Counted from the first letter of the stretch, positions 43,006-60,278 are shown. The stretch: 64,000 bases of DNA from Bacillales bacterium (GCA_038243515.1 JBBSRA010000007.1:22373-86372); one strand, 5' to 3'. Notes: generated by a model from the letters alone, not told the origin. Made by a program: numbers and translations.

Positions 43006-43490
43006 TCTGCATCTCCTCCGCCCGTAACATTTTCTTTCTTAATAAAGTATCGATAAGCTTTTTCGCAGAAACGGATAAATAACAAAGTGCCTGCAATCGG
43101 CATGATTAAGTAATTAATCCATATCGGGAAGCCGACATCAATAGTTTTAATATCTTGGCTATATGCTGTTGTTACCATATCAAGGCCAGTCCAAAAGATG
43201 AAAATACTGAAAGCAGAGCCAATCAATAACGTAACTGCTTGAGAGAATTGCTGCATTTTAGGTCCAAACCTATCGTAAAGTACGTCTATCGCAATATGCT
43301 TATCTTCTTTCAAAGCTGATGAAAAGCCGATAAAAATGGCCCACACTAAAAGCATTGTATAAATTTCGGTAGCCCAACTTTGAGAACTTCCTAAGACATA
43401 ACGCATAAAAACGGAGTATAGACTAATAGCAATTCCAAATAAAAAGAAGATGATAGAGAAAGCGCTCTCAATACGATCCAGATATTTCAT
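42990..43490 (-). CDS. dctQ: TRAP transporter small permease
   Basis: Four TM helices; RYVLG..SWATE and HIAID motifs. Confidence 0.9.
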   Translation of the reverse strand: MKYLDRIESAFSIIFFLFGIAISLYSVFMRYVLGSSQSWATEIYTMLLVWAIFIGFSSALKEDKHIAIDVLYDRFGPKMQQFSQAVTLLIGSAFSIFIFWTGLDMVTTAYSQDIKTIDVGFPIWINYLIMPIAGTLLFIRFCEKAYRYFIKKENVTGGGDAEWKQL

Positions 43491-43517
43491 TTAAATCCTC
43501 CTCAATCAATATGTATT

Positions 43518-43806
43518 TTGGATACGAAAACAATTAGTCAAATCATAATACAAGTTATAACTAATAACAAGCAAAATTTAGAATAGAAAGAAAATTTAAC
43601 TGATATAACTTTAGTGCTATTCATTTCTTGATATACTTAGTTCTAAATAATTACTGAAAGATGCTAAAAAAGAAATTACTATAAAAGATAGAATATTTAA
43701 ATTTTTCTTTACATTCGTTTTTTTCTATGATAATTTTGTGGTAAGTTGTATCCAAAATTCAACGCAAGGACATCAACTTAATTTCTTTTGTTTATATCGT
43801 ATACAA
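43518..43806. promoter_or_regulatory. Three putative GntR/FadR operators in the dctQ-dctP intergenic region
   Basis: TTGGATACGA (43518-27), TTGTATCCAA (43746-55) and TCGTATACAA (43797-806), resembling TTGTATACAA-type FadR-subfamily sites. Confidence 0.55.
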
Positions 43807-43838
43807 AGGGTAGAGAGAAAGAGAGGAGCAGATAAAAT

Positions 43839-43852
43839 TGAAAGCCCTTACA
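43839..43852 (+). promoter_or_regulatory. Putative cre (CcpA) site upstream of dctP
   Basis: TGAAAGCCCTTACA has one mismatch to TGWAANCGNTNWCA. Confidence 0.6.
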
Positions 43853-43904
43853 AAAAAGATTTGAGTTTATCTTGAGATTTTAAAAAAATTAGGGGGTTTT
43901 TTAG

Positions 43905-44933
43905 ATGAAAAAACACATTTTAACCTTATCATTATTAATGTCTGCGGTTGTATTAGCTGCTTGTGGTGATGATGAAGCAGCCACTAAAGGAGAAAGTAGT
44001 GGTGACGACGTTCAAGAAATGACCATTAAATTTTCTCACGTCGTAGCGGAAAATACACCTAAGCATCAAGGTGCATTAGCTATGAAAGAATATATAGAAA
44101 AAGAATCTGACGGTGCAATTGAAGTTGAAATTTATCCTAATAGTTCACTGTTCGGAGATCAAGACGAATATCAGAACTTAGTTTCGAATAATGTTCAATT
44201 TATCGCGCCTGATTTATCAAAATTTGTCGGGAATAATCCGCAATTTAATGTGCCATCTCTTCCTTTTATGTTTGATAATGATGAAGAAGCAATTGCATTC
44301 TGGGACGGTGAAAAAGGCCAAGAGATTTTGGGTAGTTTAGAAGGTGATGGTGTACTTGGTTTATCTATGTGGCCAAATGGTGGTAAGCACGTTACCAATA
44401 ATGAACGACCAATTGATTCACCAGACGACTTTGAAGGCTTGAAATTCCGAACTCAAGGTGGTCAAGTGCTAGAAGCTATTTATGCCGCTTTAGGTGCGGG
44501 CTCTGAATCTATTCCTTTTGGAGAACTTTACACAGCACTTGACCAAGGAGTTGTAGAAGGTCAGGAAAATACGTTCAGCAACATTGAATCTAAGAAATTC
44601 GATGAAGTTCAAGATTATATGACTATTATGAACCACACACGTGTAGATTACGCTATTTTCACAAACACTGATTTTTGGGAAAGCATGAACGACGCGACAA
44701 AAGAAATCGTAGAAGCCGGAATTGACGAAGGAACAGAAGTGGCACGTGAAGAAGCAAAAAATCTAAATGAAAAAGCTCTTGAGTTAATTCGCGAAAGAGG
44801 ACAGGTCGAAATCATCGAGTTGACACCTGAACAAATCGAAGAGTTCCGTACAACTTTAGAACCTATTTATGATGAATTCGAAGATGAAATTGGTGCCGAT
44901 GTATATGAAGCGGCGCGTGAAGCTGCTGAATAA
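43905..44933 (+). CDS. dctP: TRAP substrate-binding lipoprotein
   Basis: Lipobox LAAC, KFSHVV, PSLPF, GLKFR and ALDQGVVEGQEN motifs. Confidence 0.93.
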   Translation: MKKHILTLSLLMSAVVLAACGDDEAATKGESSGDDVQEMTIKFSHVVAENTPKHQGALAMKEYIEKESDGAIEVEIYPNSSLFGDQDEYQNLVSNNVQFIAPDLSKFVGNNPQFNVPSLPFMFDNDEEAIAFWDGEKGQEILGSLEGDGVLGLSMWPNGGKHVTNNERPIDSPDDFEGLKFRTQGGQVLEAIYAALGAGSESIPFGELYTALDQGVVEGQENTFSNIESKKFDEVQDYMTIMNHTRVDYAIFTNTDFWESMNDATKEIVEAGIDEGTEVAREEAKNLNEKALELIRERGQVEIIELTPEQIEEFRTTLEPIYDEFEDEIGADVYEAAREAAE

Positions 44934-46505: not shown

Positions 46506-47435
46506 ATGAAGCTACCTAAAAAAGTAAAGATAAATGAAGTTGTCTTAAGAGATGGACTACAACTAGAAGACAAAGTACTGACTTTAGATGAGAAAAAAAA
46601 GATATTTGATCAATTAGTAAAAGCTAATGTTCAGACGATAGAGTTTGGTTCATTTGTGCATCCTAAATTAGTGCCACAAATGACAAACAGTGGGGAACTA
46701 TTTGAATTGATATCGGAAAATCCGAATGATGTAAAGCTGATTGCGTTGATTCCCAATTTAAAAGGAGCAAAAAATGCACAAGAAAAAGGCGTAAAAAACA
46801 TAAATTTCGTCTTCTCAGCTAGTGATACACATAATAAGCAAAATGTTCAAAAAAGCACAGAAGATTCACTGAGTGAGCTGAAAGAAATTCTCAGTTATTG
46901 CAAAGAACATGACATGTGCTTGAGTGTATCGATTGCGACGACTTTTGGATGTCCTTTCGAAGGTGAAGTAAAAAAAGAACGGATTTACTGGATTCTTGAG
47001 CAATTAACGTCTTTAGATCTAGAAACAATTACGTTAGCGGATACTACGGGTATGGCAAATCCACAACAAGTTTACGACTTGATAACAGACCTAATAAACA
47101 AATTTCCACAACAATTATTCAATCTTCATTTTCATAATACAAGAGGAATGGGACTTGTAAACATGATGGCTGCAATGCAAGCTGGCGTCACAAGTTTTGA
47201 TGCTTCCTTAGGTGGACTTGGAGGTTGTCCATTTGCTCCTGGAGCAACTGGCAATATCTGCACAGAAGATGTTGTTCATATGCTTCATAGTATGGGAATT
47301 GAGACAGGTCTGTCATTAGACGAGTTGATAATCGCTTCTAAGACGCTTCAACAACTTGTCGGTCATGAAACACCGAGTTATGTTTTAAAAGCAGGTCCAT
47401 ATAACCGAAAATATTTGATACCTACAAAGAAATAG
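46506..47435 (+). CDS. HMG-CoA lyase family (DRE-TIM) acyl-CoA lyase
   Basis: LRDGLQ, FGCPFEG, LADTTG, HFHNT and GLGGCPFAPGATGN motifs. Confidence 0.9.
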   Translation: MKLPKKVKINEVVLRDGLQLEDKVLTLDEKKKIFDQLVKANVQTIEFGSFVHPKLVPQMTNSGELFELISENPNDVKLIALIPNLKGAKNAQEKGVKNINFVFSASDTHNKQNVQKSTEDSLSELKEILSYCKEHDMCLSVSIATTFGCPFEGEVKKERIYWILEQLTSLDLETITLADTTGMANPQQVYDLITDLINKFPQQLFNLHFHNTRGMGLVNMMAAMQAGVTSFDASLGGLGGCPFAPGATGNICTEDVVHMLHSMGIETGLSLDELIIASKTLQQLVGHETPSYVLKAGPYNRKYLIPTKK

Positions 47436-47520
47436 AAACCTTATCTAACGGAAACCAAAAAAATATGCAATAAGCAGCGCTATTTTTTGTTACCTATCGA
47501 TATAAACTAGGAGGATTATT

Positions 47521-48315
47521 ATGTCTAAGTGGGAAACTTTGTTATTGAATAAACAATTCAGCAATGACAATGTCTATGTAATTGAACTGAATAGACCTGA
47601 AGCAATGAATTCGTTGAATACAAAAATGGCTGTCGAATTGATTGAATGTTTGACATCACTGGAGCAACAAAAAGATTTGCGTGCGTTAGTACTGACGGCT
47701 AAAGGAGAAAAAAGCTTTTGCGTAGGAGCGGATTTAAAAGAACGGAAAGGAATGACAAACGAACAATGGAAACAGCAACATGATATTTTCGAAGAGGCCT
47801 ATGAATTGTTGCGAAACTTTAAGTTGCCAGTGATTGCAGCAGTTAATGGATTTGCCTTAGGAGGAGGCATGGAGATGTTGCTAAGCTGTGACCTTCGCTA
47901 TGCTTCCGAACAAGCTAAAGTAGGATTGCCTGAAGTTAAATTAGGAATTATTCCAGGTGTAGGAGGAACTCAACTATTGCCGCGCGCCATTCCAGTCGGA
48001 TTAGCGAAAGAAATGCTTTTTAGAGGAAATCAAGTTGATGCGCAGAAAGCGTTGGAAGTTGGAATTCTGAATGGTGTTTTCACGAAAGAAGAATTGATGT
48101 CAAAAACAATAGAAATTGCCAAAGAAATTGCGCAGAATGCACCACTATCTTTGCAATCGATCAAGAAATCTATTCAAACCGGATTGCATACAGACATGAA
48201 TACGGCTCTTTCGATTGAACTTGATCAATACTACAAATGTGCTAATTCGGAAGATCGAATGGAAGGTATTTTAGCTTTTAATGAAAAACGAAAACCAAAT
48301 TGGCAAGGGAAATAA
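47521..48315 (+). CDS. Enoyl-CoA hydratase (crotonase), methylglutaconyl-CoA hydratase/YngF-like
   Basis: FCVGADLKER, NGFALGGGME, LPEVKLGIIPG.GGTQ and F.EKRKP motifs. Confidence 0.9.
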   Translation: MSKWETLLLNKQFSNDNVYVIELNRPEAMNSLNTKMAVELIECLTSLEQQKDLRALVLTAKGEKSFCVGADLKERKGMTNEQWKQQHDIFEEAYELLRNFKLPVIAAVNGFALGGGMEMLLSCDLRYASEQAKVGLPEVKLGIIPGVGGTQLLPRAIPVGLAKEMLFRGNQVDAQKALEVGILNGVFTKEELMSKTIEIAKEIAQNAPLSLQSIKKSIQTGLHTDMNTALSIELDQYYKCANSEDRMEGILAFNEKRKPNWQGK

Positions 48316-48354
48316 AAGGCCTAATTAATTTATTGGCGAAAGGAGATTCAGAAA

Positions 48355-49695
48355 ATGGAATTGAGCAGGCAATTAGCAAACTATAGCTTAAATCTGCAAT
48401 ACGAGGATTTGCCTGAAGAAGTCGTGTCATTTACAAAGTTATGTATTCTCGATTATTTCGGATCAGCAATAGCTGGATCAGATAAAAAACCGGTTCAAAT
48501 AATTAGCAACTTAGTAAAAGAAATGGGTGGCTTTGAACAAGTAAAACTATTTACTGGAGGAAAATCAAGTGTATTAAATGCGACTTTAGTAAATGGATCG
48601 GCCAGTCACATAATGGAACTAGATGATATTCACAAAGGATCGATTATCCATGCAGCTACCGTTGTTATTCCAGCAGCATTAGCAGTTGCGGAATGGCGAC
48701 AATTGAGTGGGAAAGAACTGATCACCGCTGTAGTCGTAGGATACGAAGTCTGCTTTAGAATCGGCGAAGCAGTATCGCCTTCTCATTATTATTATTGGCA
48801 CAATACTGCTACGTGTGGGACATTCGGTGCCACGGCTGCTGCTGGAAAACTACTTGGTCTGACAGAAGATCAAGTAGTCGATGCTTTAGGAAATGCAGGA
48901 TCACAAGCCGCTGGACTATGGGAATTTATTGTTGACGGTGCCATGACAAAACAACTACACACGGCAAAAGCCGCAATGAACGGTACAATGGCTGCTTTAC
49001 TGGCGCAAAAAGACTTTACAGGACCGAAGAAAATTCTCGAAGGCGATCGTGGATTTTTTAATGCGATGAGTGAAGAACATGATGCTTCTAGAATAACGGA
49101 AAATCTTGGACAAGAATTTAAAATTTTGGAAAACTCTTTTAAAATTCATGCTTCTTGTCGGCATACACATCACGCCATCGATTTGCTGATCGATATTTTC
49201 AAAGAAGATCAACCTATACTAGAAGACATCGAATCGGTGGAAGTCGATTCCTATCAAGTTGCCCTTACTATCACGGATGACGTAGACCCTCAAACAGAAT
49301 ACGCAGCTAAATTCAGCCTCCAGTTCTGCTCAGCTTTAGCTTTGTTGAATGGTCGTGCAAGTCTGGAGGATTTCGGCGAAGAAAAGTTGTGGGATAAAGA
49401 CGTTCGAGCATTGATGGAGAAAGTAAATGTTCATGTGGATCCTTTAATTGATGGTAGCTATCCAAAACAATGGGGAGCAGCAGTCACTGTTTTGTTAAAG
49501 AATGGACAGAAAATTTATAAACAAACGGATTTTCCAAAAGGTGATCCTGAAAACGCGGTTACTACAGAAGAGTTGCTTGAAAAATTTATAGGAATGGCTA
49601 CATCAATGCCAAGCCAACAACGACAAGTTTTAGCAGTGAGTTTAATGGATTTAGAATCGATAGAAAATATTAGTGATCTTATGGCGACACTATAA
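48355..49695 (+). CDS. MmgE/PrpD family protein
   Basis: ELDDIH, IHAATV, WHNTATCG, KQLH, FKIHASCRHTH, AKFS and PKGDP motifs. Confidence 0.9.
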   Translation: MELSRQLANYSLNLQYEDLPEEVVSFTKLCILDYFGSAIAGSDKKPVQIISNLVKEMGGFEQVKLFTGGKSSVLNATLVNGSASHIMELDDIHKGSIIHAATVVIPAALAVAEWRQLSGKELITAVVVGYEVCFRIGEAVSPSHYYYWHNTATCGTFGATAAAGKLLGLTEDQVVDALGNAGSQAAGLWEFIVDGAMTKQLHTAKAAMNGTMAALLAQKDFTGPKKILEGDRGFFNAMSEEHDASRITENLGQEFKILENSFKIHASCRHTHHAIDLLIDIFKEDQPILEDIESVEVDSYQVALTITDDVDPQTEYAAKFSLQFCSALALLNGRASLEDFGEEKLWDKDVRALMEKVNVHVDPLIDGSYPKQWGAAVTVLLKNGQKIYKQTDFPKGDPENAVTTEELLEKFIGMATSMPSQQRQVLAVSLMDLESIENISDLMATL

Positions 49696-49759
49696 CTAGC
49701 AATAGTACGATTGACGAATGGAAAACGGAGAAAAGAATCCATGTAAAGAAGGCGTTTCT

Positions 49760-50284
49760 ATGGAACGTAATAGTGAACAATTAATAGGGGTAGTAAATTT
49801 GATCAATCAATTAAAAACCTTTAACTCATCTGAACTAAAACAAGCCACTTATTTATTATCGCTTTTGCAGGAGCCGCAAGACGATTCAATCGATAACGCT
49901 GTACCGATGCATTTTCTTGGAAGATTTTTAGGGATGAAACAACACAAAGACGGGACAACTGAAATGGCTTTAGGATTTCAGAATGAAAATACTTATGGTG
50001 TAGCACAAGGTGGGTCTATTTATACATTGGCTGATGTCGCAATTGGCTTTAGCATCTTGCAGAATTTAACAGAAGAAGAAAAAGTATTTACTTTAGAGCT
50101 GAAAGTGAATTTTATTGAAAAAGGACAAGGTTCTCGTTTGATCGCGACTCCTTGTATTTTGAGACAAGGCAGAACTACAGTAGTTTCTGAGTGCGCGATT
50201 CATGATGATTCGGGGAAATTAGTGGCCAAAGCGCTGGGTACTTTTTATATCAGTAGAACAAAGAAAAGAAAGGAAGGAGACTGA
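49760..50284 (+). CDS. PaaI/hotdog-fold acyl-CoA thioesterase with N-terminal extension
   Basis: NTYGVAQGG..TLADVA and TLELKVNF motifs. Confidence 0.85.
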   Translation: MERNSEQLIGVVNLINQLKTFNSSELKQATYLLSLLQEPQDDSIDNAVPMHFLGRFLGMKQHKDGTTEMALGFQNENTYGVAQGGSIYTLADVAIGFSILQNLTEEEKVFTLELKVNFIEKGQGSRLIATPCILRQGRTTVVSECAIHDDSGKLVAKALGTFYISRTKKRKEGD

Positions 50285-51129
50285 TGAAGGAAATCGCATA
50301 TGAAGAAATTATGGAAAAAGTAAAAACGATGTGCATAGAGTCCAACTACAATCTCGGAGAAGATGTTTACGCAGCGTTTAAGAATGCGTTGCAAACGGAA
50401 CGCTCAGAAACGGGCAAAGAAGTGCTGACGCAACTGATTGATAATGCCGATATTGCCAAAGTCGAAAGAGTACCAATGTGCCAGGATACGGGTACGGCAG
50501 TTTTTATCGTGGAAGTGGGTCAAGATTGTCACATTGTTGGTGGCAGGTTAGTAGACGCCATTAATGAAGGTGTGGAAAAAGGATATAGTGAAGGATATTT
50601 AAGAAATTCTATGATTTACAATCCGATGAATCGGACGAATACAGGAAACAACACGCCAGCCATTGTCCATATTGACTTGGTTGAAGGACAAGAACTGACG
50701 CTGCATATGACCGCTAAAGGAGGCGGTGCAGAAAACATGAGCGCACTGAAAATGCTGAAGCCTTCTGATGGTATGGAAGGAGTCAAGGATTACATTTTAT
50801 CCATTGTTAAAGAAGCGGGACCAAATGCATGTCCGCCGCTAGTAGTCGGTATCGGTATCGGAGGTAATTTCGAGCGTTGTGCTTTTTTAGCTAAAAAATC
50901 ATTGTTTCGTCCTTTAGGTGTACGCCACCAAGATCCAATAGTTGCAGAGCTTGAACTGGAATTAATGGAACAAATCAACCGCCTCGGCATCGGACCACAA
51001 GGCATGGGCGGCAGTACAACTGCACTAGACGTCAAAGTGGAACTCGAATCTTGTCATATTGCAGCTTTACCAGTAGCAGTCAATTTAAATTGTCACGCCA
51101 GTCGTCACCAAACAATTGTGCTGAAATGA
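50284..51129 (+). CDS. Class I Fe-S hydro-lyase alpha subunit (fumarase/tartrate dehydratase family)
   Basis: PMCQDTG, GYLRNS, KGGGAEN, ACPP, GPQGMGG and CHASRH motifs. Confidence 0.92.
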   Translation: MKEIAYEEIMEKVKTMCIESNYNLGEDVYAAFKNALQTERSETGKEVLTQLIDNADIAKVERVPMCQDTGTAVFIVEVGQDCHIVGGRLVDAINEGVEKGYSEGYLRNSMIYNPMNRTNTGNNTPAIVHIDLVEGQELTLHMTAKGGGAENMSALKMLKPSDGMEGVKDYILSIVKEAGPNACPPLVVGIGIGGNFERCAFLAKKSLFRPLGVRHQDPIVAELELELMEQINRLGIGPQGMGGSTTALDVKVELESCHIAALPVAVNLNCHASRHQTIVLK

Positions 51130-51138
51130 GGTTATTAT

Positions 51139-51687
51139 ATGCAAAAGAAAATCCAATTGCCTTTACGTACTGAAGATATCGAATTGCTGAAAGCAGGAGA
51201 TCGCGTACTGCTGTCTGGTACTGTATACACAGGCCGAGATGCAGCCCATAAGCGAATGGTAGAACAAGAAAAAGAAGGGATATCACTTCCTATTGAACTG
51301 GAAGATCAGGTTTTGTATTATACGGGTCCAACTCCAGCCAAACCTGGAGAAGTTATCGGTTCTGCGGGTCCTACGACGAGCGGAAGGATGGACTTGTATA
51401 CACCAGCTCTTCTTGAAAGGGGCTTGAAGGGCATGATTGGCAAAGGCTATCGAAGTGAAGAGGTCATTGCTTCTATGCTGAAACATAAAGCTGTTTATTT
51501 TGGTGCTGTCGGTGGTGCTGCTGCATTGATTGCGCGTTCAATTAAAAAAGCTGAAGTGATTGCCTATGAAGATTTAGGAACAGAAGCCATTCGGAAATTG
51601 AGTATTGAAGATTTTCCAGTGTTTGTTATCAATGATATTCATGGTGGAGATATCTACAAAGATGAAATCGCAAAATATAAGCAATAA
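51139..51687 (+). CDS. Class I Fe-S hydro-lyase beta subunit
   Basis: TGRDAAHKR, YYTGP, GPTTSGRM, IGKG and YEDLGTEA motifs. Confidence 0.92.
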   Translation: MQKKIQLPLRTEDIELLKAGDRVLLSGTVYTGRDAAHKRMVEQEKEGISLPIELEDQVLYYTGPTPAKPGEVIGSAGPTTSGRMDLYTPALLERGLKGMIGKGYRSEEVIASMLKHKAVYFGAVGGAAALIARSIKKAEVIAYEDLGTEAIRKLSIEDFPVFVINDIHGGDIYKDEIAKYKQ

Positions 51688-51724
51688 TCAATGAACAGTG
51701 AGGTACCCAAAAGGAGGTAGCAAT

Positions 51725-52624
51725 ATGAAAGCAGGAATTATCGGATTAGGCAATATGGGCGGTCGTATGGTGAAAAGACTACTTGACCAAGGAGTAAAAG
51801 TTGGAGTTTTTGATCTGAACAAAGACTTAGTCCGAAAATTTGTAGAGATGGGCGCAGAAGAAGCGAAAAGCCCTGCAGATTTAGCAAAGAAATTTTCATA
51901 TGTTCTGACAGTCTTGCCGAATGTTTTCATTGTTAAAGAAACGCTGATGGGTACAGAAGGCTTAATGGAAGGCATGAATTCCGATAGCTTGTTGATTGAA
52001 ATGACGACATCGATTCCTTCTGTCACAAAAGAACTCAATGCTTTATTGAAAGAGAAAGATCTAAAGATGATCGATGCACCAGTTAGTGGAGGCGTCAAAA
52101 AAGCAGAAAACGGCACTTTGTCCATCATGGTCGGAGGCGAGAGAGTCGATTTTGATAGAGCAAGACCGCTACTAGAATGCATGGGAGCCCATATTTTTCA
52201 TGTCGGAGAAGCGGGAGCAGGTCATACGATTAAGGCATTGAATAACATGATTTCCGCTACAACTTTGGCGGCTACAGGAGAAGCGATGGCACTCGGCGTT
52301 AAACTAGGTCTTGATCCTGAAAAAATGCTTGATGTCATTAATGCAAGTACCGGCAGAAGTTTTTCCAGTGATTTTAAGTTTCCCAATCAAGTTCTGACAC
52401 GAAGATTTGAAGTCGGTTTTACTTTGGATTTGATGGTCAAAGATTTAAAAATTGCAATGATGATGGCAGAAGAAGAAAAGGTGCCTATGTTTATTTCCAG
52501 TGCGTCTTTTCAGCTGTGGAAGCATGCTTGGTCTCAAGGAGGCGGCGATCAGGATCATACGGCTATTATAAAGTATATCGAGGAAATGTTTTCTATAGAA
52601 ATTAAAGGATCCGAATTGTTCTAG
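51725..52624 (+). CDS. Beta-hydroxyacid dehydrogenase (3-hydroxyisobutyrate/tartronate semialdehyde reductase family)
   Basis: GLGNMG, DAPVSGG, GTLSIMVGG, KALNN (catalytic Lys) and KDL motifs. Confidence 0.9.
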   Translation: MKAGIIGLGNMGGRMVKRLLDQGVKVGVFDLNKDLVRKFVEMGAEEAKSPADLAKKFSYVLTVLPNVFIVKETLMGTEGLMEGMNSDSLLIEMTTSIPSVTKELNALLKEKDLKMIDAPVSGGVKKAENGTLSIMVGGERVDFDRARPLLECMGAHIFHVGEAGAGHTIKALNNMISATTLAATGEAMALGVKLGLDPEKMLDVINASTGRSFSSDFKFPNQVLTRRFEVGFTLDLMVKDLKIAMMMAEEEKVPMFISSASFQLWKHAWSQGGGDQDHTAIIKYIEEMFSIEIKGSELF

Positions 52625-52675
52625 TGTTCAAAGATAGCCTTTAATGAAAAACATAAAATATTCGAGGGGTGCTAT

Positions 52676-53341
52676 ATGGAAAATTTCAAATTAACAGAAC
52701 AAGATAGAGCCACTTTGCAGTATAAAGTAACAAATAAATTGAGAGAACTAATACTCAAAGGTGAGTTCAAAATGGGAGAACGCTTGATGCAAGAAGAGTG
52801 GGCTCAGAAATTAGGAGTTAGTCGAATGCCACTTAGAGAAGCATTGCGTCAACTAGAGGTTGAGGGCTTAGTTAAGATTGAACCTAGAAGAGGTGCAGTA
52901 GTTACTCCAATTTCCACTGAGGATATTGAGGAAATCTACCAATTGAGAGCTCTTCTGGAAGGACAGGCAGTTGTGAAGTCTCTTCCATATTTGGGGAATG
53001 AGGAAATACTAGAACTTGAAAATCTATATAACGCAATGATCAAGCTAAAAGCTGATGAAAACGATGTTGAGATTTTCATGAAACTAAATGCCGAATTTCA
53101 TCGAATTTTAAGAGAAAGTTGTCCATGGAGAAGAATTCAAGGATTCATCGAAACTTTATGGAAAGGGATTCCTCCTTACACACCGAGTCTCCTATCAAAT
53201 CACTTAGCAGATTCACATGAAGAGCATCGCTTAATGTTGGAATATGTAAAACAAAAAGACGAAGTTCAATTAAAAAGGATTACAGAAAAGCATATACTAA
53301 GAACCAAAGAAAACTTGATTGAGATGATGAACAAAGAATAA
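52676..53341 (+). CDS. GntR family regulator, FadR subfamily (FCD domain)
   Basis: LGVSRMPLREAL HTH, EIYQLR..LE, FH and EH motifs. Confidence 0.92.
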   Translation: MENFKLTEQDRATLQYKVTNKLRELILKGEFKMGERLMQEEWAQKLGVSRMPLREALRQLEVEGLVKIEPRRGAVVTPISTEDIEEIYQLRALLEGQAVVKSLPYLGNEEILELENLYNAMIKLKADENDVEIFMKLNAEFHRILRESCPWRRIQGFIETLWKGIPPYTPSLLSNHLADSHEEHRLMLEYVKQKDEVQLKRITEKHILRTKENLIEMMNKE

Positions 53342-53388
53342 CATTTTTAATTCACAGGAAGTTTGACAATCAGAGAGGGGCAAATGGT

Positions 53389-54447
53389 ATGAAACAAATA
53401 GAGTTGGCGGTAATTGCAGGAGATGGCATTGGAAAAGAAGTCGTTCCTGAAGCATTGCGTGTTCTGGATGTGGTAGCAGAAATTCATGGCGGTTTGAAAT
53501 TCAATTCGACCCATCATGACTGGAGCTCAGAGTACTATGTCCAACATGGAGAAATGATGCCCAAAGACGGCTTAAATCAATTGATACAAAGTGATGCGGT
53601 GTTCCTGGGAGCTGTTGGAGATCCGTCATTAGTTGCCGACCATATTTCACTAGGTGGCTTATTGCTGAAAATCCGTAGAGAATTTGAGCAAGTTATCAAT
53701 ATTCGTCCAGCCAAACAGTTGAAAGGAATCGTATCTCCTCTAGGAAATCCGCAGAATTTCGACATCATGATTGTCCGCGAGAACAGCGAAGGTGAATATA
53801 GCAGTGTCGGAGGAAGAGTACACAGTGGAGAAGATGAAATCGTCATTCAAAATGCAGTTTTTACAAAAAAAGGTGTTTCACGTGTTATTAAATATGCTTT
53901 TGAGTTGGCTCAAAAACGGAGTGGTCATGTAACAAGTGCCACTAAATCAAATGGAATTGTCCATTCCATGCCTTTTTGGGACGAAGTCTTTAAAGAAGTC
54001 GCAATGAATTATGGAGACGTTCAAACTAATAGCGAACATATTGATGCGCTTTCTGCTTTTTTCATTACAAAGCCGCAGACCATGGATGTCGTAGTAGCTA
54101 GCAATTTATTTGGAGATATTTTGAGTGATATTGGAGCCGCCATAATGGGCAGCATAGGGATAGCGCCTGCTGGAAACATTAATCTAAACGGCAAATATCC
54201 ATCTATGTTTGAACCTGTACATGGTTCAGCACCGGATATTTTTGGAAAAGGAATTGCTAATCCAATTGGTCAGATTTGGACAGCTAAAATGATGCTTGAT
54301 CATTTAGGAGAGCATGAAATGGGTATATTATTGCTAAATGCCATTGAAGAATCTATGCAATCTGGTATCAAAACTGCAGATATTGGAGGTAACTCTTCAA
54401 CAAGTGAAGTAACCGATGAAATTATTGCTAAGCTTCGAAAAAAGTAA
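53389..54447 (+). CDS. Tartrate / D-malate dehydrogenase (decarboxylating), beta-decarboxylating dehydrogenase family
   Basis: GDGIGKEV, ATKSNG, HIDAL, SNLFGDILSD and EPVHGSAPDI motifs; TtuC/DmlA/YcsA-type. Confidence 0.88.
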   Translation: MKQIELAVIAGDGIGKEVVPEALRVLDVVAEIHGGLKFNSTHHDWSSEYYVQHGEMMPKDGLNQLIQSDAVFLGAVGDPSLVADHISLGGLLLKIRREFEQVINIRPAKQLKGIVSPLGNPQNFDIMIVRENSEGEYSSVGGRVHSGEDEIVIQNAVFTKKGVSRVIKYAFELAQKRSGHVTSATKSNGIVHSMPFWDEVFKEVAMNYGDVQTNSEHIDALSAFFITKPQTMDVVVASNLFGDILSDIGAAIMGSIGIAPAGNINLNGKYPSMFEPVHGSAPDIFGKGIANPIGQIWTAKMMLDHLGEHEMGILLLNAIEESMQSGIKTADIGGNSSTSEVTDEIIAKLRKK

Positions 54448-54555
54448 GAATTTCTTAGCAGCTATAACGAAAACAACTATCATCATAAAAAGAACTAAAT
54501 TTTCTGAAAATACATTTACAACTGTTGAATTATTTAGTACGATACGTAGTAAGTT

Positions 54556-54573
54556 GATATTGTATCCAATATC
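54556..54573. promoter_or_regulatory. Putative GntR operator upstream of the CitE-like gene
   Basis: Near-perfect palindrome GATATTGTATCCAATATC with the same TTGTATCCAA core as the site at 43746. Confidence 0.6.
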
Positions 54574-54594
54574 CAAAGTATGGAGGATAAACCA

Positions 54595-55449
54595 ATGAAT
54601 AAACAGCGTTCTTATTTATTTGTACCTGCAACTAGTCTTTCGTTAATAAAGAAGGCAGTCTTATCTGTGGCGGATATTGTTATTGTAGACTTAGAAGATG
54701 CGGTAGCCTTATCTGAAAAGCAGGCTGCAAGAGATGTTATGAAAGAAGCTTTGAAAGTGTATAAACAGGAACACAAAATCATTGTCCGCATCAATTCTTT
54801 GGAAACTTCTCTTTGGGAAGCGGATTTGGAAACAGCCATTAATAATGGAGCTGCAGGAATTATGCTTCCAAAAGCAGAAGATGAGCAAGGAATTCAAAGA
54901 GTATCTAATAAGATACGTGAAATTAGAGAGAGCAAAGATGAAGCGTTTGAATTGATCCCATTAATAGAAAGTGCTAAGGGCGTACAGTTCGCGTACGCAA
55001 TTGCCTCCGCAGATTCTTTAGTTTCGGCGTTGGCTTTCGGATCCATTGACTTTTCACTGGATATTGACTGCGAGCTAACTCCAGAAGGAATGGAATTGCT
55101 GTTTGCTCGCTCGCAGTTGGTTATTGCTTCGAAGGCGGCGGGTATTCGACCTCCAATTGATGCGGTTTATCCGAATTTAACAGATGAAGAAGGATTGAAA
55201 AATCAAACAGTTTTTGCAAATCAACTCGGCTTTAAGGCGAAACTGGTTATTCATCCGAAACAATTAGAAGTTGTCCATCGAGTGTTTTCGCCTTCAGATG
55301 AAGAAATCACAATGGCTAAAAAAATTATTGAGGCATTTGAACAAGCTGAAAAAGAAGGTATTGCTTCGATTAAAGTTGAAGGGCAATTTGTTGACTATCC
55401 TATCTATAAAAAAGCTAAAAAACTTTACAGTAGAAATAGTGAAAAGTAG
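54595..55449 (+). CDS. CitE/HpcH-family acyl-CoA lyase (citryl/citramalyl-CoA lyase-like)
   Basis: RSYLFVP, VDLEDAV, VRIN, MLPK, LIESAKG, FGSIDF and LVIHPKQ motifs. Confidence 0.9.
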   Translation: MNKQRSYLFVPATSLSLIKKAVLSVADIVIVDLEDAVALSEKQAARDVMKEALKVYKQEHKIIVRINSLETSLWEADLETAINNGAAGIMLPKAEDEQGIQRVSNKIREIRESKDEAFELIPLIESAKGVQFAYAIASADSLVSALAFGSIDFSLDIDCELTPEGMELLFARSQLVIASKAAGIRPPIDAVYPNLTDEEGLKNQTVFANQLGFKAKLVIHPKQLEVVHRVFSPSDEEITMAKKIIEAFEQAEKEGIASIKVEGQFVDYPIYKKAKKLYSRNSEK

Positions 55450-55695
55450 TGTTGAAAAGCAGTTTAACCACTGTTATGTAGATAACTTCTGACAGACGAA
55501 ACCAACAACTTATGCTGTACTAAAATACATAAAACCATATTGCAAGAAGACGCTGCAACGATGATTATAAAATTAGTAATTTGAGATGCTAGTAAAATTT
55601 TCTTGAAGTTCTGAATGACAATCTTAAGTAACTATTATTTTGTACGGTTACATTGAACGAATTGTAACGAAGTGCGAATAAAAGGAGGGATAACA

Positions 55696-56388
55696 ATGGC
55701 CGATAAAATGGAATTCAATCAGGAAATTGCGACAGAGTACGACAAAGGAGTAAGGCGGACGTTGCCGACATATGATCCGATGTTACGCTTGTCACAAACA
55801 TTTCTTCACTACGCGCTTAAAGAGCAAGCCGAAGTACTTGTAGTCGGTTGCGGTGGAGGAAATGAATTAAAAGCTTTTGGAGTACCAAATCCGGGATGGT
55901 ATTTTACAGCAGTAGATCCTGCAAAAGCCATGCTTGAAGCGGCTAAAGTAAAAGCAGAACAAGTAGGGATTGAAAAGCGTATCGAGTGGATAAACGGTAC
56001 TGTAATGGATGTACCAATGGAAAAGCACTTTGATGGTGCAACTTGTATTCTGGTTTTGCATTTTATCCCTGAAATAGAAGAAAAAAAGGCGTTACTAATG
56101 AAAATAAGAAGTCATCTAAATTCAGGAGCTCCTTTCGTGTTGGTTAGTAAATTTGGAGATCCAGATGATTCAGAGTTTAAAGAGCTCGTAGCTTTGTGGA
56201 AGAATTATTGGTTGGATATGACCAACTTATCTGCTCAAAAAGTAGAAGAGTTAATGAAAGGCACTTTAACGGATTCATCGATTTCTGAAGCTGACATTCG
56301 GCAACTGCTAACAGACGCTGGATTTCATCGAATTGCCAACTTCTTAAAAACTAATCAGTTTGGGGGCTGGATTTGTTACGCAGATTAA
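55696..56388 (+). CDS. Class I SAM-dependent methyltransferase
   Basis: VLVVGCGGG, AVDP..AML and FDGATCILVLHF motifs. AAAGGAGG SD. Confidence 0.88.
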   Translation: MADKMEFNQEIATEYDKGVRRTLPTYDPMLRLSQTFLHYALKEQAEVLVVGCGGGNELKAFGVPNPGWYFTAVDPAKAMLEAAKVKAEQVGIEKRIEWINGTVMDVPMEKHFDGATCILVLHFIPEIEEKKALLMKIRSHLNSGAPFVLVSKFGDPDDSEFKELVALWKNYWLDMTNLSAQKVEELMKGTLTDSSISEADIRQLLTDAGFHRIANFLKTNQFGGWICYAD

Positions 56389-56456
56389 AAAGATCAAAAT
56401 CAATTCTGTATGTTTTCAAAAAAGAATAGTGGCTGCGAAAAGGGAGGGACAGAAAC

Positions 56457-57878
56457 GTGAAAAGCAATTCAGCGGAAAATGGGAGAACGCTCCTATTCAT
56501 CGGAATAGCTATTTTAGGTTTTCTTGCTGTTTATTTTTTATTGCCAAATGACTTTTCTTACGCGGCTAAAGTAATGACCAGTATTATTACTCTTGGTATT
56601 ATTTTATGGTCATTAGAAACGATACCTATTGGTTTGACCGCATTGATTATCTTATTGTTGATGTTGTTATTCGACGTCGCAGATACATCAGTTATCTTTA
56701 GTGGGTTTGCTTCACCAGCCACTTATTTAATCGTTGGTGGAATGATGCTTGCGACGGCAGTTAACGAAACTGCTTTAATTAAACGAATGAGCTATACGAT
56801 TTTAAAAAGGTGGGGTGGTCGCTCAGCGGGATTGCTTGGTAGCATTATTATTATCCAGCAGATCCAAGCCTTTTTTATTCCTTCGACTGCAGTGCGGACT
56901 GCATTAATTTTACCAGTTTCAACAATGATTATTGATACAACTCAGGCAGAACCTGGAGGCAACTTAAGGAAAATGATTATGCTGGGTGTCGCTTTTGGCG
57001 GTGTCATCAGTGGGACTTCTGTTATGACAGCGGCAATCGGTAATATTTTGACAGTGGAGTTGCTCAATCGTTTAGCAGGTATTAACATTACATATTTTCA
57101 GTGGTTTTACTATACGTTTCCTATTTGGTTACTATTAATCCCGGCTATATGGTTTATGCTACTGAAAGTCTTTCCTTTACCAGAAGAGCAGAAATATTTT
57201 CCAGCAATCAAAGATGAAATGACAAGGAAGTTAGAAGAATTAGGTCCAGTTAACGCACAAGAAATCCGCTGTTTAGCAATTTTGTTAACCATTGTTATTT
57301 TATGGTTGACTGAGCCTCTTCATGGTTTGCATCCTAGCATTCCTGCTCTTGCAGGCGTAGTGTTGATGACTTTTCCTATTATTGGTGTTGCTTCGTGGGA
57401 GCCTGTAGTTCGGATCAACTACAATACGGTATTACTGGTCAGTATTACGTTGTCAATGGGCTATACGTTTGTGGATTCCGGCGCTTCGACGACAATTAGT
57501 CAGTATTTAAGTGTTGATTGGTTTATGCAACTTATACAAAATCCGTTTCCTTCAATAGTGATTGTTATCATTTTGGCTCAGATTTTTCATAAAATGATTT
57601 CAAATGTTGCGACTGCAGTTGTCGTGCTAGTGCCGATTGTTATAAGCGTTGCTCAAAATGCCGGAGTTGATCCATTGGTTATGGCGTTTACTACTGGATT
57701 GACTTGTCTTTTCGGATTTATCTTAATTGTTGAGTCCATGCCAAACTTGATTGCTCATAGCACAGGAATAGTTTCACAAAAAGATTTTTTAAAGCCTGGT
57801 TTATACGCAACTGTAATTTCGGTGAGTGCTACGATTTTTGTTGCGGCCACTTGGTGGAATTGGATTGGATTGATTTAA
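56457..57878 (+). CDS. DASS/SLC13 di-/tricarboxylate permease
   Basis: FSGFASP, FIPSTAVR, TAAIGN, MISNVATA and SMPNLIA motifs. GTG start after GGGAGG. Confidence 0.88.
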   Translation: MKSNSAENGRTLLFIGIAILGFLAVYFLLPNDFSYAAKVMTSIITLGIILWSLETIPIGLTALIILLLMLLFDVADTSVIFSGFASPATYLIVGGMMLATAVNETALIKRMSYTILKRWGGRSAGLLGSIIIIQQIQAFFIPSTAVRTALILPVSTMIIDTTQAEPGGNLRKMIMLGVAFGGVISGTSVMTAAIGNILTVELLNRLAGINITYFQWFYYTFPIWLLLIPAIWFMLLKVFPLPEEQKYFPAIKDEMTRKLEELGPVNAQEIRCLAILLTIVILWLTEPLHGLHPSIPALAGVVLMTFPIIGVASWEPVVRINYNTVLLVSITLSMGYTFVDSGASTTISQYLSVDWFMQLIQNPFPSIVIVIILAQIFHKMISNVATAVVVLVPIVISVAQNAGVDPLVMAFTTGLTCLFGFILIVESMPNLIAHSTGIVSQKDFLKPGLYATVISVSATIFVAATWWNWIGLI

Positions 57879-57906
57879 CAAACTAATTTTAGAGGAGGAA
57901 AATGAT

Positions 57907-59073
57907 ATGTTGCCATTGGAAGGAATAACCGTTGTTTCTTTAGAACAAGCTGTTGCAGCACCATTTGCAACTAGACAATTAGCCGATTTGGGAGCGCGGG
58001 TCATCAAAGTAGAAAGACCAGGAGTAGGAGACTTCGCCAGAAACTACGATAAAACAGTAAAGGGAATGGCAAGTCATTTTGTATGGATCAATCGTTCGAA
58101 AGAGTCGCTAGCACTAGATCTCAAGAAAGAAGAAGCCAAAGAAGTGTTGCATAAACTGTTAAAAGACGCGGATGTATTTCTTCATAACCTAGCTCCTGGT
58201 GCCGTCGATCGACTTGGATTTAGCGCGCAAGAACTAAAAAAAAACTACCCGCAATTAATTATTTGTTCTATTTCTGGTTACGGTACTTTCGGACCTTATA
58301 CAAATAAAAAAGCGTATGATTTACTCATACAATGTGAAGCAGGGTTGGTGTCAGTTACAGGAACGGAAGACACACCATCTAAAGCAGGAATTTCAATTGC
58401 AGACATTGCAGCAGGGATGTATGCATACACTGGCATATTAACTGCGATTATTTCACGCTATAAAACAGGGAAAGGCGCGATTATTGAAGTATCAATGCTT
58501 GAGGCCTTGGCAGAATGGATGGGTTATCCTCTTTATTACTCAGCTTACGGAGACAATGAACCGCCACGGACAGGTGCCAGCCATTCGACGATTTATCCTT
58601 ATGGTCCGTTTAAAGCGGGTGATGAGAAAATGGTATTCATGGGAATTCAAAACGAGCGAGAATGGGTTGAATTTTGTGGAACTGTTTTGAATAATCCTGA
58701 ATTGGCTTCGGATTCACTGTTCAATAGCAACTCCGAGCGAGTTGCTAATAAAGAAGCATTAAAAGAAATTATTGAAACTGTTTTTCAGACAATGAACTCT
58801 ACTCAAGTAATTGAAAAACTTGAAGAATCGCGAATTGCGAATGCACGTTTAAACACGATGAACGAATTAGTCGAACACCCGCAATTGGCAGCACGCAATC
58901 GTTGGAGAGAAGTGGATTCGCCGGTTGGAAAACTAAAGGCGCTCATTCCACCTGTTACGTCGGATGAAGTGGATACGGTTATGAATCCGATTCCAGCTGT
59001 CGGAGAACATACAGATGCTATTTTAGTAGAGTTAGGTTTTTCGAAAGAACAGATAAGCAAATTGACTACTTAA
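57907..59073 (+). CDS. Family III (CaiB/BaiF) CoA transferase
   Basis: LEQAVAAPFATRQLADLGARVIKVERPGVGDFAR, NRSKES, SISGYG, AYDLLIQ and SIADIAAG motifs; Ict/SUGCT-like. Confidence 0.92.
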   Translation: MLPLEGITVVSLEQAVAAPFATRQLADLGARVIKVERPGVGDFARNYDKTVKGMASHFVWINRSKESLALDLKKEEAKEVLHKLLKDADVFLHNLAPGAVDRLGFSAQELKKNYPQLIICSISGYGTFGPYTNKKAYDLLIQCEAGLVSVTGTEDTPSKAGISIADIAAGMYAYTGILTAIISRYKTGKGAIIEVSMLEALAEWMGYPLYYSAYGDNEPPRTGASHSTIYPYGPFKAGDEKMVFMGIQNEREWVEFCGTVLNNPELASDSLFNSNSERVANKEALKEIIETVFQTMNSTQVIEKLEESRIANARLNTMNELVEHPQLAARNRWREVDSPVGKLKALIPPVTSDEVDTVMNPIPAVGEHTDAILVELGFSKEQISKLTT

Positions 59074-59102
59074 AAAATTGTATTTGAAGGGGGAAATTTA
59101 TA

Positions 59103-60278
59103 ATGCCGACATTAACACAAACAGAAAGAGAGCAATTACGTCAAAAAGTCCGAGAACTATGTTCAGAATTCCCGAATTCGTATTGGAGAAAATTAGATTT
59201 AGAACGTGAGTATCCTTACGAGTTTGTAGATGCGCTAACAAAAAGTGGATATCTTTCAGCATTAATTCCTGAGAAATATGGCGGTAAAGGCTATGGTATG
59301 ACAGAAGCTACGATTATTTTAGAAGAAATTAATCGTTCTGGTGGCCACGCTGCAGGTTGTCATGCTCAAATGTATACGATGGGTGCATTATTAAAACACG
59401 GTAGTGAAGAACAAAAACAGCAGTATTTGCCTGGTATTGCAAATGGATCAATAAGGTTTCAGGCCTTTTCTGTAACAGAAGACAAAGCAGGCTCTAATAC
59501 TACTGCTATCGAAACGTTTGCTGAAAAAACAGCAAACGGTTATGTCGTTAATGGTCATAAAAATTGGACTAGTCGTTTACTGCAATCAGATTTAGTCATG
59601 TTACTTGCCCGTACAACACCAATTGAAAATGTAGGAGAAAAGCGCGCTGAAGGGCTTAGTTTATTTTTAGTTGATCTTCGAATCATTCGCGAACAACAAC
59701 CTGAATCTCTAGAAGTGGAACCGGTTCGTGCCATGTTCAACTATGCAACAAACCAAGTATGGTATAAAAACATGGAAATTCCAGCAGAATGTTTGATTGG
59801 TGAAGAAGGTAAAGGGTTTCGATATGTACTAGACGGCATGAATGCAGAACGGACCTTATTGGCGGCAGAAGCGATAGGAGATGGATACTTTTTTATCGAT
59901 AAAGCGACTAGTTACGCGAATGAACGAGAAGTCTTTAACCGGAAAATTGGTGAAAACCAAGGCATTCAATTTCCGATTGCACGAGCTTACGCAGCAATTA
60001 AAGCTGCCGACTTAATGCGTTATGAAGCAGCAAGAAGATTTGATAATAATGAAAAATTCGGCGAACAAGCCAATTTGGCAAAATTCTTGTCCAGTGAAGC
60101 GAGTTGGCAAGCAGCGAACGTCTGCCTAGATACATTCGGTGGTTATGGATTTGTCGACGAGTATGACGTAGAGCGGAAATTTAGAGAAACGCGAATGTAT
60201 CAAGTGGCACCAGTCAGCAATAATATGATTTTAGCTTATTTAGGACAAAATGTATTAAAGATGCCGCGCTCTTACTAA
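59103..60278 (+). CDS. Acyl-CoA dehydrogenase
   Basis: IPEKYGG, CHAQMY, SVTE, NGHKNWTS, LDGMNAER, NQGIQFP and FGGYGF...ERKFRE motifs. Confidence 0.93.
   Translation: MPTLTQTEREQLRQKVRELCSEFPNSYWRKLDLEREYPYEFVDALTKSGYLSALIPEKYGGKGYGMTEATIILEEINRSGGHAAGCHAQMYTMGALLKHGSEEQKQQYLPGIANGSIRFQAFSVTEDKAGSNTTAIETFAEKTANGYVVNGHKNWTSRLLQSDLVMLLARTTPIENVGEKRAEGLSLFLVDLRIIREQQPESLEVEPVRAMFNYATNQVWYKNMEIPAECLIGEEGKGFRYVLDGMNAERTLLAAEAIGDGYFFIDKATSYANEREVFNRKIGENQGIQFPIARAYAAIKAADLMRYEAARRFDNNEKFGEQANLAKFLSSEASWQAANVCLDTFGGYGFVDEYDVERKFRETRMYQVAPVSNNMILAYLGQNVLKMPRSY

Follow-up and report, generated by a model that had tools for sequence, protein, structure and literature searches.

An itaconate-methylsuccinate gene cluster of Pseudomonas and Cupriavidus was reportedly described by Sasikaran in 2014 and by de Witt in 2023. 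In P. aeruginosa and C. necator the cluster has been dissected biochemically, with a family III CoA-transferase (Ict), a MaoC hydratase (Ich) and a CitE lyase (Ccl) as its characterised parts (PMC12290011). The P. aeruginosa genes, PA0878-0886, also encode the dehydrogenase Mcd, a VOC protein, the isomerase Msi and a TRAP transporter, and a class I fumarase that acts as a mesaconase (PMC12290011, Fig. 6; PMC4682846) feeds the same pool. Here we compare with this cluster a gene island in a 64,000-nucleotide stretch of DNA (the window) from a Bacillales bacterium (GCA_038243515.1, JBBSRA010000007.1:22373-86372), whose genome is a Planococcus draft of 2.9 Mb (113 contigs, 92.9% complete). The island consists of 14 tightly packed same-strand genes (46506-60278; open reading frame (ORF) calls with Pfam and NCBIfam labels), among them a crotonase-family enoyl-CoA hydratase (ECH) gene at 47521-48315. 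The account that we favour, with modest confidence, is that the island encodes a Bacillales pathway for branched C5-dicarboxylates in which the crotonase would act as the hydratase, an enzyme of the HMG-CoA (3-hydroxy-3-methylglutaryl-CoA) lyase family (HMGL) as the main lyase, and a CitE-type lyase in a parallel branch.

The island's family III CoA-transferase (CoAT3) is 58% identical to P. aeruginosa Ict (PA0882) over 386 aa (474 bits) and its acyl-CoA dehydrogenase (ACAD) 55% identical to Mcd (PA0879) over 384 aa (447 bits); the next paralogues in the genome stand at 33% and 35%, respectively. The MmgE/PrpD-family protein is 42.5% identical to Msi (PA0881), scoring 331 bits (166 with the B. 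subtilis 'IRG1' structure, bsIRG1), and it has no further paralogue in the genome. It keeps all seven Msi/IDS-epimerase positions (His, Glu, His, Tyr, His, Lys and Lys; alignment to 2hp3, residue list from PMC12290011) and is a probable Msi-like methylsuccinate isomerase. In the 2025 survey Msi was found almost only in Pseudomonadota (96.2%), and the substrates of MmgE/PrpD enzymes had a succinate backbone in common (PMC12290011). The CitE-like lyase is 36% identical to Ccl (PA0883), and the TRAP genes beside the island are 42-44% identical to PA0884-0886. Since the CoA-transferase, the ACAD and the MmgE/PrpD protein are orthologous to the characterised Ict, Mcd and Msi, their substrates would be branched C5-dicarboxylates rather than 3-methylglutarate. 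The comparison supports a pathway for methylsuccinate, mesaconate, citramalate and possibly itaconate. A preliminary description of the window had likewise placed the island in an itaconate-type pathway; its alternative, a route from 3-methylglutarate to HMG-CoA, picked out the right four genes (transferase, dehydrogenase, crotonase and HMGL) with what is probably the wrong substrate. Two further pairs of family III CoA-transferase and ACAD genes lie elsewhere in the genome (C53:982-3228 and C14:25825-27738), at ~30-33% identity to Ict and Mcd.

Set against PA0878-0886, the island lacks a MaoC-type Ich and a homologue of the VOC protein PA0880, and has instead the crotonase and the HMGL, with probably the opposite citramalyl-CoA stereochemistry. 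Its regulator is of the GntR rather than the LysR type, and its additional genes encode a PaaI-type thioesterase, a CMD-family protein, a tartrate/D-malate-type dehydrogenase (TDH), an HIBADH-like dehydrogenase, a methyltransferase and a DASS-family symporter.

The product of Mcd, mesaconyl-C4-CoA, requires a hydratase. A Pfam scan found no MaoC domain (PF01575, PF13452) in any ORF of the island, where the ACAD gene starts 29 bp past the CoAT3 gene with no MaoC gene in the gap, and MaoC gave no match in the islands of five related island-bearing genomes. Elsewhere in the window's own genome MaoC domains occur in two places only: as a split pair on contig C20, in a beta-oxidation cluster that also encodes an AMP-ligase, ACADs, an SDR and a thiolase, and as a gene between mdh and phoPR (contig C5). 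P. aeruginosa Ich (PA0878, taken from the public record of the PA0878-0886 cluster) gave no match in the genome by tblastn, and the Ich-like MaoC protein of an Oceanobacillus island matched the C5 gene alone (24% identity, E = 7e-4). Context, and dissimilarity to both the P. aeruginosa and the Oceanobacillus proteins, ruled out the C20 and C5 genes as Ich. Neither the island, in which the preliminary description had noted the lack of a MaoC dehydratase, nor the rest of the genome, where it had proposed looking for one, holds an Ich-like MaoC gene; the genome being a draft in 113 contigs and 92.9% complete, this absence is not absolute. With Mcd's product in need of hydration and no Ich-like MaoC found, the crotonase is the likely mesaconyl-C4-CoA hydratase; to act on itaconyl-CoA itself it would need to carry out an isomerisation as well. 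We also asked whether a 188-aa hotdog-fold protein (49718-50284) might be a hydratase in disguise, and discarded the idea: its only model matches are to thioesterases, and it co-occurs with MaoC in MaoC-type islands, being conserved in islands of both the crotonase type and the MaoC type.

The crotonase matches PF00378 (ECH_1) with 243.6 bits, its residues 15-263 covering profile positions 3-250 of 251. The translation contains the motifs GGGMEM, GLPEVK and VGADLKER, and E118 and E138 are shared by all 10 orthologues compared. From rat ECH we take the GGGxE and PE motifs to hold the two catalytic glutamates of true hydratases, alongside an oxyanion-hole segment. Of the solved structures, the B. 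anthracis crotonase 3kqf scores 220.7 bits, rat ECHS1 182.4 and the methylglutaconyl-CoA hydratase AUH (1hzd) 174.6; the top NCBIfam model, PRK07657, scores 274.9 bits, under its cut-off of 363. The preliminary description had called the protein methylglutaconyl-CoA-hydratase-like on the strength of a GADLKER motif. The motif is there (residues 69-75); the PDB scores do not place AUH ahead of ECHS1 or other short-chain crotonases, and by similarity the protein is a generic short-chain crotonase.

The neighbourhood and the tree point to a more specific role. All 48 crotonases that adjoin an Mcd gene fall within one 76-row group (SH-aLRT 83) of a quick maximum-likelihood tree built from 140 crotonases; outside this group lie the paralogues from the same genome and the Streptomyces, clostridial and deltaproteobacterial clades. 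Mapped on the tree, the Mcd-adjacency label changes 15 times compared with a mean of 40.8 in shuffles, none of 500 shuffles being as low, figures that are inflated by kinship. The group has signature residues (M78, W83, H87, E91 and Y237) that are at least 90% conserved inside it and at most 15% outside. Three of these, at positions 83, 87 and 91, sit in the segment after GADLKER, which, going by rat ECH, presumably lines the acyl-tail pocket.

To lessen bias, we anchored a wider sample on Mcd rather than on the crotonase. Among 301 Planococcaceae genomes, 52 had an Mcd-like ACAD (E <=1e-100, identity >=52%), and 40 Mcd loci were taken from these, with genes labelled by tblastn. A crotonase 42-80% identical to that of the island was present in 33 of the 40 loci, with a crotonase-Mcd gap of at most 122 bp in 27; the ACADs adjoining these crotonases were 56-69% identical to P. 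aeruginosa Mcd. By content, the 40 loci divide into ECH with HMGL (17), ECH with HMGL and CitE (5), ECH alone (5), ECH with MaoC and HMGL (4), MaoC with CitE (3), ECH with CitE (2), and none of the four genes (4, on cut contigs). Among the 33 crotonase loci, an HMGL paralogue is thus present in 26, CitE is missing from 26 and MaoC is missing from 29; CitE is present in all three MaoC-only loci.

The gene order in relatives agrees with a crotonase-HMGL pairing. Crotonase orthologues of at least 64% identity were found in 9 of 25 Planococcus genomes searched, the window's own included, and the entire island is syntenic in seven. In two Planococcus species (G008 and G021) CitE is cleanly missing from the island, which keeps the crotonase, HMGL, CoAT3 and ACAD. 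Genome G024 has a LysR gene followed by MmgE/PrpD-DctPQM-ECH-CoAT3-HMGL-ACAD, and compact operons with just ECH, CoAT3, HMGL, ACAD and MmgE/PrpD exist (L028 and L033). Across other genera, HMGL adjoins the crotonase in most relatives: Jeotgalibacillus and Robertmurraya have HMGL-ECH-ACAD-MmgE/PrpD-(4HBT)-FumAB (FumAB being the two class I fumarase-type subunits); a JGI metagenome contig has HMGL-ECH-ACAD-CoAT3-MmgE/PrpD; and Halalkalibacter has HMGL-ECH-ETFba-FeS-ACAD-MmgE/PrpD, with CitE broken into two ORFs. Pueribacillus (L032) has ECH-ACAD-FumAB...CoAT3...CitE, and the stretch covered there contains no HMGL. The Oceanobacillus order, HMGL-ECH-ACAD-FumAB-GntR-DASS-CitE-CoAT3-MaoC-MmgE/PrpD, sets two hydratase-lyase pairs side by side. 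Three Planococcus loci (L023, L024 and L026, from genomes G023, G013 and G001) carry ~1.2 kb of additional sequence between CitE and the methyltransferase gene relative to the window.

The three MaoC-only loci (L118-L120) have the order CitE-FumAB-CoAT3-MaoC-ACAD. Their CoAT3 is 67-69% and their ACAD 77% identical to those of the island (77-80% for the ACADs of CoAT3-MaoC-ACAD clusters in sister genera), compared with just ~57% for the crotonase-adjacent ACADs of other genera. The MaoC-type genomes (G154, G230 and G260, the last with a cut contig showing ACAD only) are without an island-type crotonase; their top crotonase match is 43-44% identical and lies on a different contig from Mcd. By these comparisons the Planococcus island looks like a mosaic of a crotonase-type island, which is without an adjacent ACAD of its own and without a second type of CoA-transferase, and a CoAT3-ACAD pair from a MaoC-type cluster. 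A CoAT3-ACAD pair minus its MaoC gene and plus a crotonase is what non-orthologous displacement of Ich would look like. With crotonase-Mcd adjacency near-universal, and CoAT3-ACAD standing where the sister clusters have CoAT3-MaoC-ACAD, the crotonase is the best candidate for the missing Ich, as the preliminary description had proposed. In three further loci (L143, L146 and L149, from G290, G163 and G176) a GntR gene is followed by MaoC-ECH-Mcd-HMGL-CoAT3-MmgE/PrpD, so that both hydratases stand with an HMGL-type lyase only; this arrangement hints that MaoC may supply an itaconyl-CoA isomerase step there, or that the two hydratases may epimerise citramalyl-CoA.

Of the two lyases in the island, the HMGL has the motifs RDGLQ, HFHNTRG and GGCPFAPGA aligned to 6nds and 1ydo, with the catalytic Arg-Asp, His-x-His and Cys all present. 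Its best PDB match is 6nds (271 bits), followed by YngG (238) and the human enzyme (194). The second HMGL of the genome, on contig C4, scores 276 against YngG and 242 against the human enzyme; on these scores the C4 copy is the canonical one and the island enzyme a diverged paralogue. The C4 gene (C4:1498-3663) is divergently adjacent to a thiolase, and a separate set of crotonase, biotin carboxylase and carboxyltransferase genes, resembling methylcrotonyl-CoA carboxylase (MCCase), lies at C1:110487-114563; these are likely leucine/ketone-body enzymes independent of the island. A leucine-pathway role for the HMGL-crotonase pair was weighed too and discarded, since the genes of MCCase type and the more canonical HMGL are located elsewhere; carboxyltransferase genes were found on C1, C2 and C5 and none in the island. 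The CitE protein is nearest to 9nzb and 8khl, both acyl-CoA lyase beta chains, with CLYBL (5vxc) next, and scores 174 bits against the RipC/Ccl model NF038242, under the cut-off of 375.

The two lyase families differ in stereochemistry. (S)-citramalyl-CoA corresponds in geometry to (R)-HMG-CoA, for which the CitE-type enzyme PA0883 is specific, and the HMGL-type enzyme PA2011 is specific for (S)-HMG-CoA (PMC6689899). By this family geometry an HMGL-type enzyme would take (R)-citramalyl-CoA, and the crotonase-HMGL branch probably runs via that isomer. The CitE lyase could be fed by the mesaconase and the CoA-transferase with no CoA-level hydratase, which would explain its independent loss.

We propose the following pathway. 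Substrates would enter via the TRAP and DASS transporters, and the Msi-like MmgE/PrpD protein would interconvert the methylsuccinate enantiomers. The Ict orthologue would form the C4-CoA ester, which the Mcd orthologue would oxidise to mesaconyl-C4-CoA. The crotonase would hydrate this to citramalyl-CoA, a step taken in Pseudomonas and Yersinia by a MaoC-type Ich, and citramalyl-CoA would be split into acetyl-CoA and pyruvate, for the most part by the neighbouring HMGL-family enzyme via (R)-citramalyl-CoA. In a parallel branch, the FumAB-type mesaconase would convert mesaconate to (S)-citramalate, the CoA-transferase would form (S)-citramalyl-CoA, and the CitE-type lyase would probably cleave it.

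Several observations weigh against this pathway. The compared genomes are kin, so that the counts overstate independence, and the support for the 76-row crotonase group (SH-aLRT 83 in a quick tree) is only moderate. The island HMGL passes the NCBI HMG-CoA lyase model (317.3 bits, cut-off 246), which leaves room for a C6 substrate. Two of the 33 crotonase loci (L133 and L142), and Pueribacillus (L032) from outside the family sample, have the crotonase and CitE with no HMGL in the stretch seen, so the crotonase may instead make the (S)-isomer, or its product may be open to both lyases. Finally, MaoC and the crotonase occur together in four sampled loci (L143, L146 and L149, of one operon type, and L122) and in Oceanobacillus; the two hydratases are consequently not simply interchangeable.

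The best-surviving alternative is that of the preliminary description, in which the crotonase makes (S)-citramalyl-CoA from itaconyl- or mesaconyl-CoA and CitE cleaves it, as proposed for AUH and CLYBL, leaving the HMGL another job. The island does hold the three genes concerned, CoA-transferase, crotonase and CitE, as intact ORFs at the places given for them (57907-59073, 47521-48315 and 54580-55449; ORF calls and Pfam), the nearest solved relatives of CitE (9nzb, 8khl and CLYBL) speak for it, and L032, L133 and L142 combine crotonase, Mcd and CitE, with no HMGL in the part covered. However, the three do not hold together as a unit. Two Planococcus species keep the crotonase in a syntenic island from which CitE has gone; CitE is in two ORF fragments in Halalkalibacter and is absent from 26 of the 33 crotonase loci. 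HMGL is present in 26/33 of these loci, and CitE accompanies MaoC in 3/3 MaoC-only loci; CitE could also be supplied via mesaconase and CoA-transferase. We consider this arrangement unlikely.

Somewhat less probable still is a C6 route, from 3-methylglutarate through 3-methylglutaconyl-CoA and (S)-HMG-CoA to acetoacetate and acetyl-CoA. The HMGL score above would suit it, the transferase, dehydrogenase, crotonase and HMGL genes are contiguous in G024, and in the tree an actinobacterial clade adjoins the Mcd-linked group, with two members beside HMGL (L057 and L097) that look like leucine-pathway hydratases. Yet the transferase shares 58% identity with an enzyme characterised on itaconate/methylsuccinate and the dehydrogenase 55% with one characterised on methylsuccinyl-C4-CoA, and the ACADs at other loci reach 66-69% identity to P. 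aeruginosa Mcd. An Msi-like epimerase, from a family whose substrates are succinate-backboned (PMC12290011), suits chiral methylsuccinate and not achiral 3-methylglutarate, and the genome has its separate canonical HMG-CoA lyase and MCCase-like set. Least probable is that the crotonase is no replacement for MaoC, being instead half of an epimerising pair with another hydratase or acting on a different isomer, for instance citraconyl-CoA, with Planococcus having lost itaconate/methylsuccinate use or relying on a promiscuous enzyme: the coexistence of MaoC and crotonase noted above would fit this, as would the survival of C5-dicarboxylate turnover in C. necator once every recognised gene for Ict, Ich and Ccl had been deleted (PMC13491972), which indicates that promiscuous activities exist, but 29 of the 33 crotonase loci are without MaoC, and the compact five-gene operons would be incomplete unless the crotonase acts as a hydratase.

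The pairing of crotonase and Mcd extends beyond Bacillales. In a search of genome contigs with a profile of the 10 orthologues, the top non-Bacillales relatives of the crotonase among the matches listed were proteobacterial (44-48% identity); the matches listed were all at most 48% identical and included no orthologue from Bacillales. Many of these adjoin an ACAD 53-65% identical to P. aeruginosa Mcd, and some adjoin an HMGL too; the crotonase-Mcd pair was seen in L040, L042, L044, L049, L051, L052, L059, L060, L062, L064, L065 and L081, with no MaoC or CitE within 10 kb of those crotonases. Plasmid pPT365 of Paraburkholderia terrae (L158, 8001-15846) has an IclR gene followed by ECH-CoA-transferase-ACAD-MmgE/PrpD-ETFb-ETFa-HMG-CoA lyase, a complete set of the crotonase type with its own electron-transfer flavoprotein (ETF) genes and an ACAD 64% identical to P. 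aeruginosa Mcd. A second HMGL and CoA-transferase pair lies divergently upstream on the same plasmid.

We tentatively suggest that a second form of the pathway is widespread in Bacillota and Pseudomonadota, in which a dedicated group of crotonases would stand in for MaoC-type Ich, and HMGL-family enzymes for CitE-type Ccl, via (R)-citramalyl-CoA. This could explain the residual turnover in C. necator, for which a 2026 study invoked unidentified enzymes after activity remained in strains stripped of every recognised homologue of Ict, Ich and Ccl (PMC13491972). The literature searched, PMC12290011 and PMC13491972 included, gave no description of a crotonase-type itaconyl-/mesaconyl-C4-CoA hydratase or an HMGL-type lyase in such clusters, and the 2025 survey (PMC12290011) mentions neither. 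Within that literature, the crotonase-HMGL form would appear to be an undescribed variant of a known pathway.

The crotonase and HMGL are the same two families that stand side by side in leucine degradation (AUH/LiuC/YngF with HMGCL/LiuE/YngG), where a 3-methyl-2-enoyl-CoA with a carboxylate is hydrated and then undergoes retro-Claisen cleavage. Relative to the methylglutaconyl-CoA and HMG-CoA of that pathway, mesaconyl-C4-CoA and citramalyl-CoA are homologues shorter by one carbon. Unlike the leucine pair, the island genes have no methylcrotonyl-CoA carboxylase nearby; their partners are orthologues of Mcd, Ict and Msi, the lyase is diverged and the crotonase shows no preference for AUH. For the lyase there may be a precedent in Chloroflexus aurantiacus, where Friedmann et al. 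in 2006 and 2007 reportedly found a succinyl-CoA:(R)-citramalate CoA-transferase beside an (R)-citramalyl-CoA lyase that yields acetyl-CoA and pyruvate. The lyase of the 2007 work is said to be of the HMGL family, a membership unconfirmed in the literature searched. The combination of family III CoA-transferase and HMGL-family lyase is likened to the island by this description rather than by sequence, and we know of no linked crotonase, Mcd or Msi in Chloroflexus.

The island resembles the mammalian itaconate route in having a CitE-family lyase and a crotonase-family hydratase that is proposed, in both, to act on itaconyl/mesaconyl-CoA. Old mitochondrial work by Wang, Adler and Lardy (1961) is reportedly the source from which the role of AUH is inferred. 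The crotonase of the bacterial clusters travels with HMGL and Mcd and not with CitE; mammalian CLYBL uses (3S)-citramalyl-CoA. A mirror image is found in M. tuberculosis, whose CitE-type lyase Rv2498c serves both itaconate, via (S)-citramalyl-CoA, and leucine, via (R)-HMG-CoA (PMC6689899). That case shows that the two lyase families can swap C5 and C6 substrates at fixed geometry; in the island the swap would be the opposite one, a leucine-type crotonase and HMGL having apparently been recruited to C5-dicarboxylates.

Itaconate acts as an effector in immunity and serves industry as a monomer; its reduction product methylsuccinate is abundant and comes from the gut. Surveys of degraders by genome depend on the Ict-Ich-Ccl(-Mcd-Msi) marker set and, if the crotonase-HMGL form is real, would have overlooked a whole class of degraders. 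It would also provide synthetic biology with an (R)-citramalyl-CoA route, offer a genetically tractable bacterial precedent for the part that a crotonase, AUH, has long been assumed but not proven to play in the breakdown of itaconate by mammals, and mirror M. tuberculosis, where CitE-type enzymes took over leucine catabolism.

Table 1. Genes of the island and its 5' flank, with window coordinates and the assignments proposed here
Feature	Coordinates	Strand	Evidence
TRAP dicarboxylate transporter	41740-44933: DctM 41740-43005, DctQ 42990-43490, DctP 43905-44933	DctM -, DctQ -, DctP +	Pfam DctM and DctP
CMD/PcaC-like protein, 129 aa	45060-45449	+	PF02627; TIGR02425 161 bits, cut-off 155.7
HMG-CoA-lyase-family C-C lyase, proposed to cleave citramalyl-CoA, probably the (R)-isomer	46506-47435	+	PF00682; NF004283 317.3 bits, cut-off 246
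Crotonase-family enoyl-CoA hydratase, proposed mesaconyl-C4-CoA hydratase	47521-48315	+	PF00378, full length
MmgE/PrpD-family protein, probable (S)-(R)-methylsuccinate isomerase, Msi-like	48355-49695	+	42.5% to PA0881
Hotdog-fold PaaI/4HBT-type thioesterase, possible acyl-CoA proofreading	49718-50284	+	PF03061, TIGR00369
Class I fumarase-type Fe-S hydro-lyase, two subunits, probable mesaconase (mesaconate to (S)-citramalate)	alpha 50284-51129, beta 51139-51687	+	PF05681, PF05683; NF004885 and NF005310 above cut-offs
HIBADH-like dehydrogenase	51698-52624	+	Pfam, NCBIfam
GntR/FCD regulator	52676-53341	+	Pfam, NCBIfam
Tartrate/D-malate-type dehydrogenase (TDH)	53389-54447	+	NF006048 622.9 bits, cut-off 501
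CitE-family acyl-CoA lyase, probable (S)-citramalyl-CoA lyase	54580-55449	+	PF03328
S-adenosylmethionine (SAM) methyltransferase	55672-56388	+	Pfam, NCBIfam
DASS-family anion symporter	56457-57878	+	Pfam, NCBIfam
Family III CoA-transferase (CoAT3), Ict orthologue	57907-59073	+	PF02515; 58% to PA0882
Acyl-CoA dehydrogenase (ACAD), Mcd orthologue	59103-60278	+	55% to PA0879

The 14 genes are preceded on their 5' side by the TRAP transporter, the CMD-family gene and an AEC-family permease (Table 1). Synteny of the TRAP genes with the island is kept in eight Planococcus genomes and in other Bacillales, and that of the HIBADH-like/GntR/TDH block (51698-54447) is kept in relatives. The methyltransferase and DASS symporter genes (55672-57878) are co-conserved in several genera. 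The methyltransferase matches no subfamily; that it methyl-esterifies a toxic unsaturated acid, in the manner of trans-aconitate methyltransferase, is a mere guess. The CMD/PcaC-like gene shows the top conservation in the island (80-99% amino-acid identity across genera, compared with 60-80% for its neighbours), and its product might act on a lactone, such as a fungal product of the paraconate type, as has been proposed for the VOC protein PA0880 in Pseudomonas. Two TDH-type genes, 51% identical, are present in the genome, one in the island and one at C13:13541-14596; the island copy adjoins CitE in several genera, and D-malate, a 3-methylmalate or (R)-citramalate are possible substrates.

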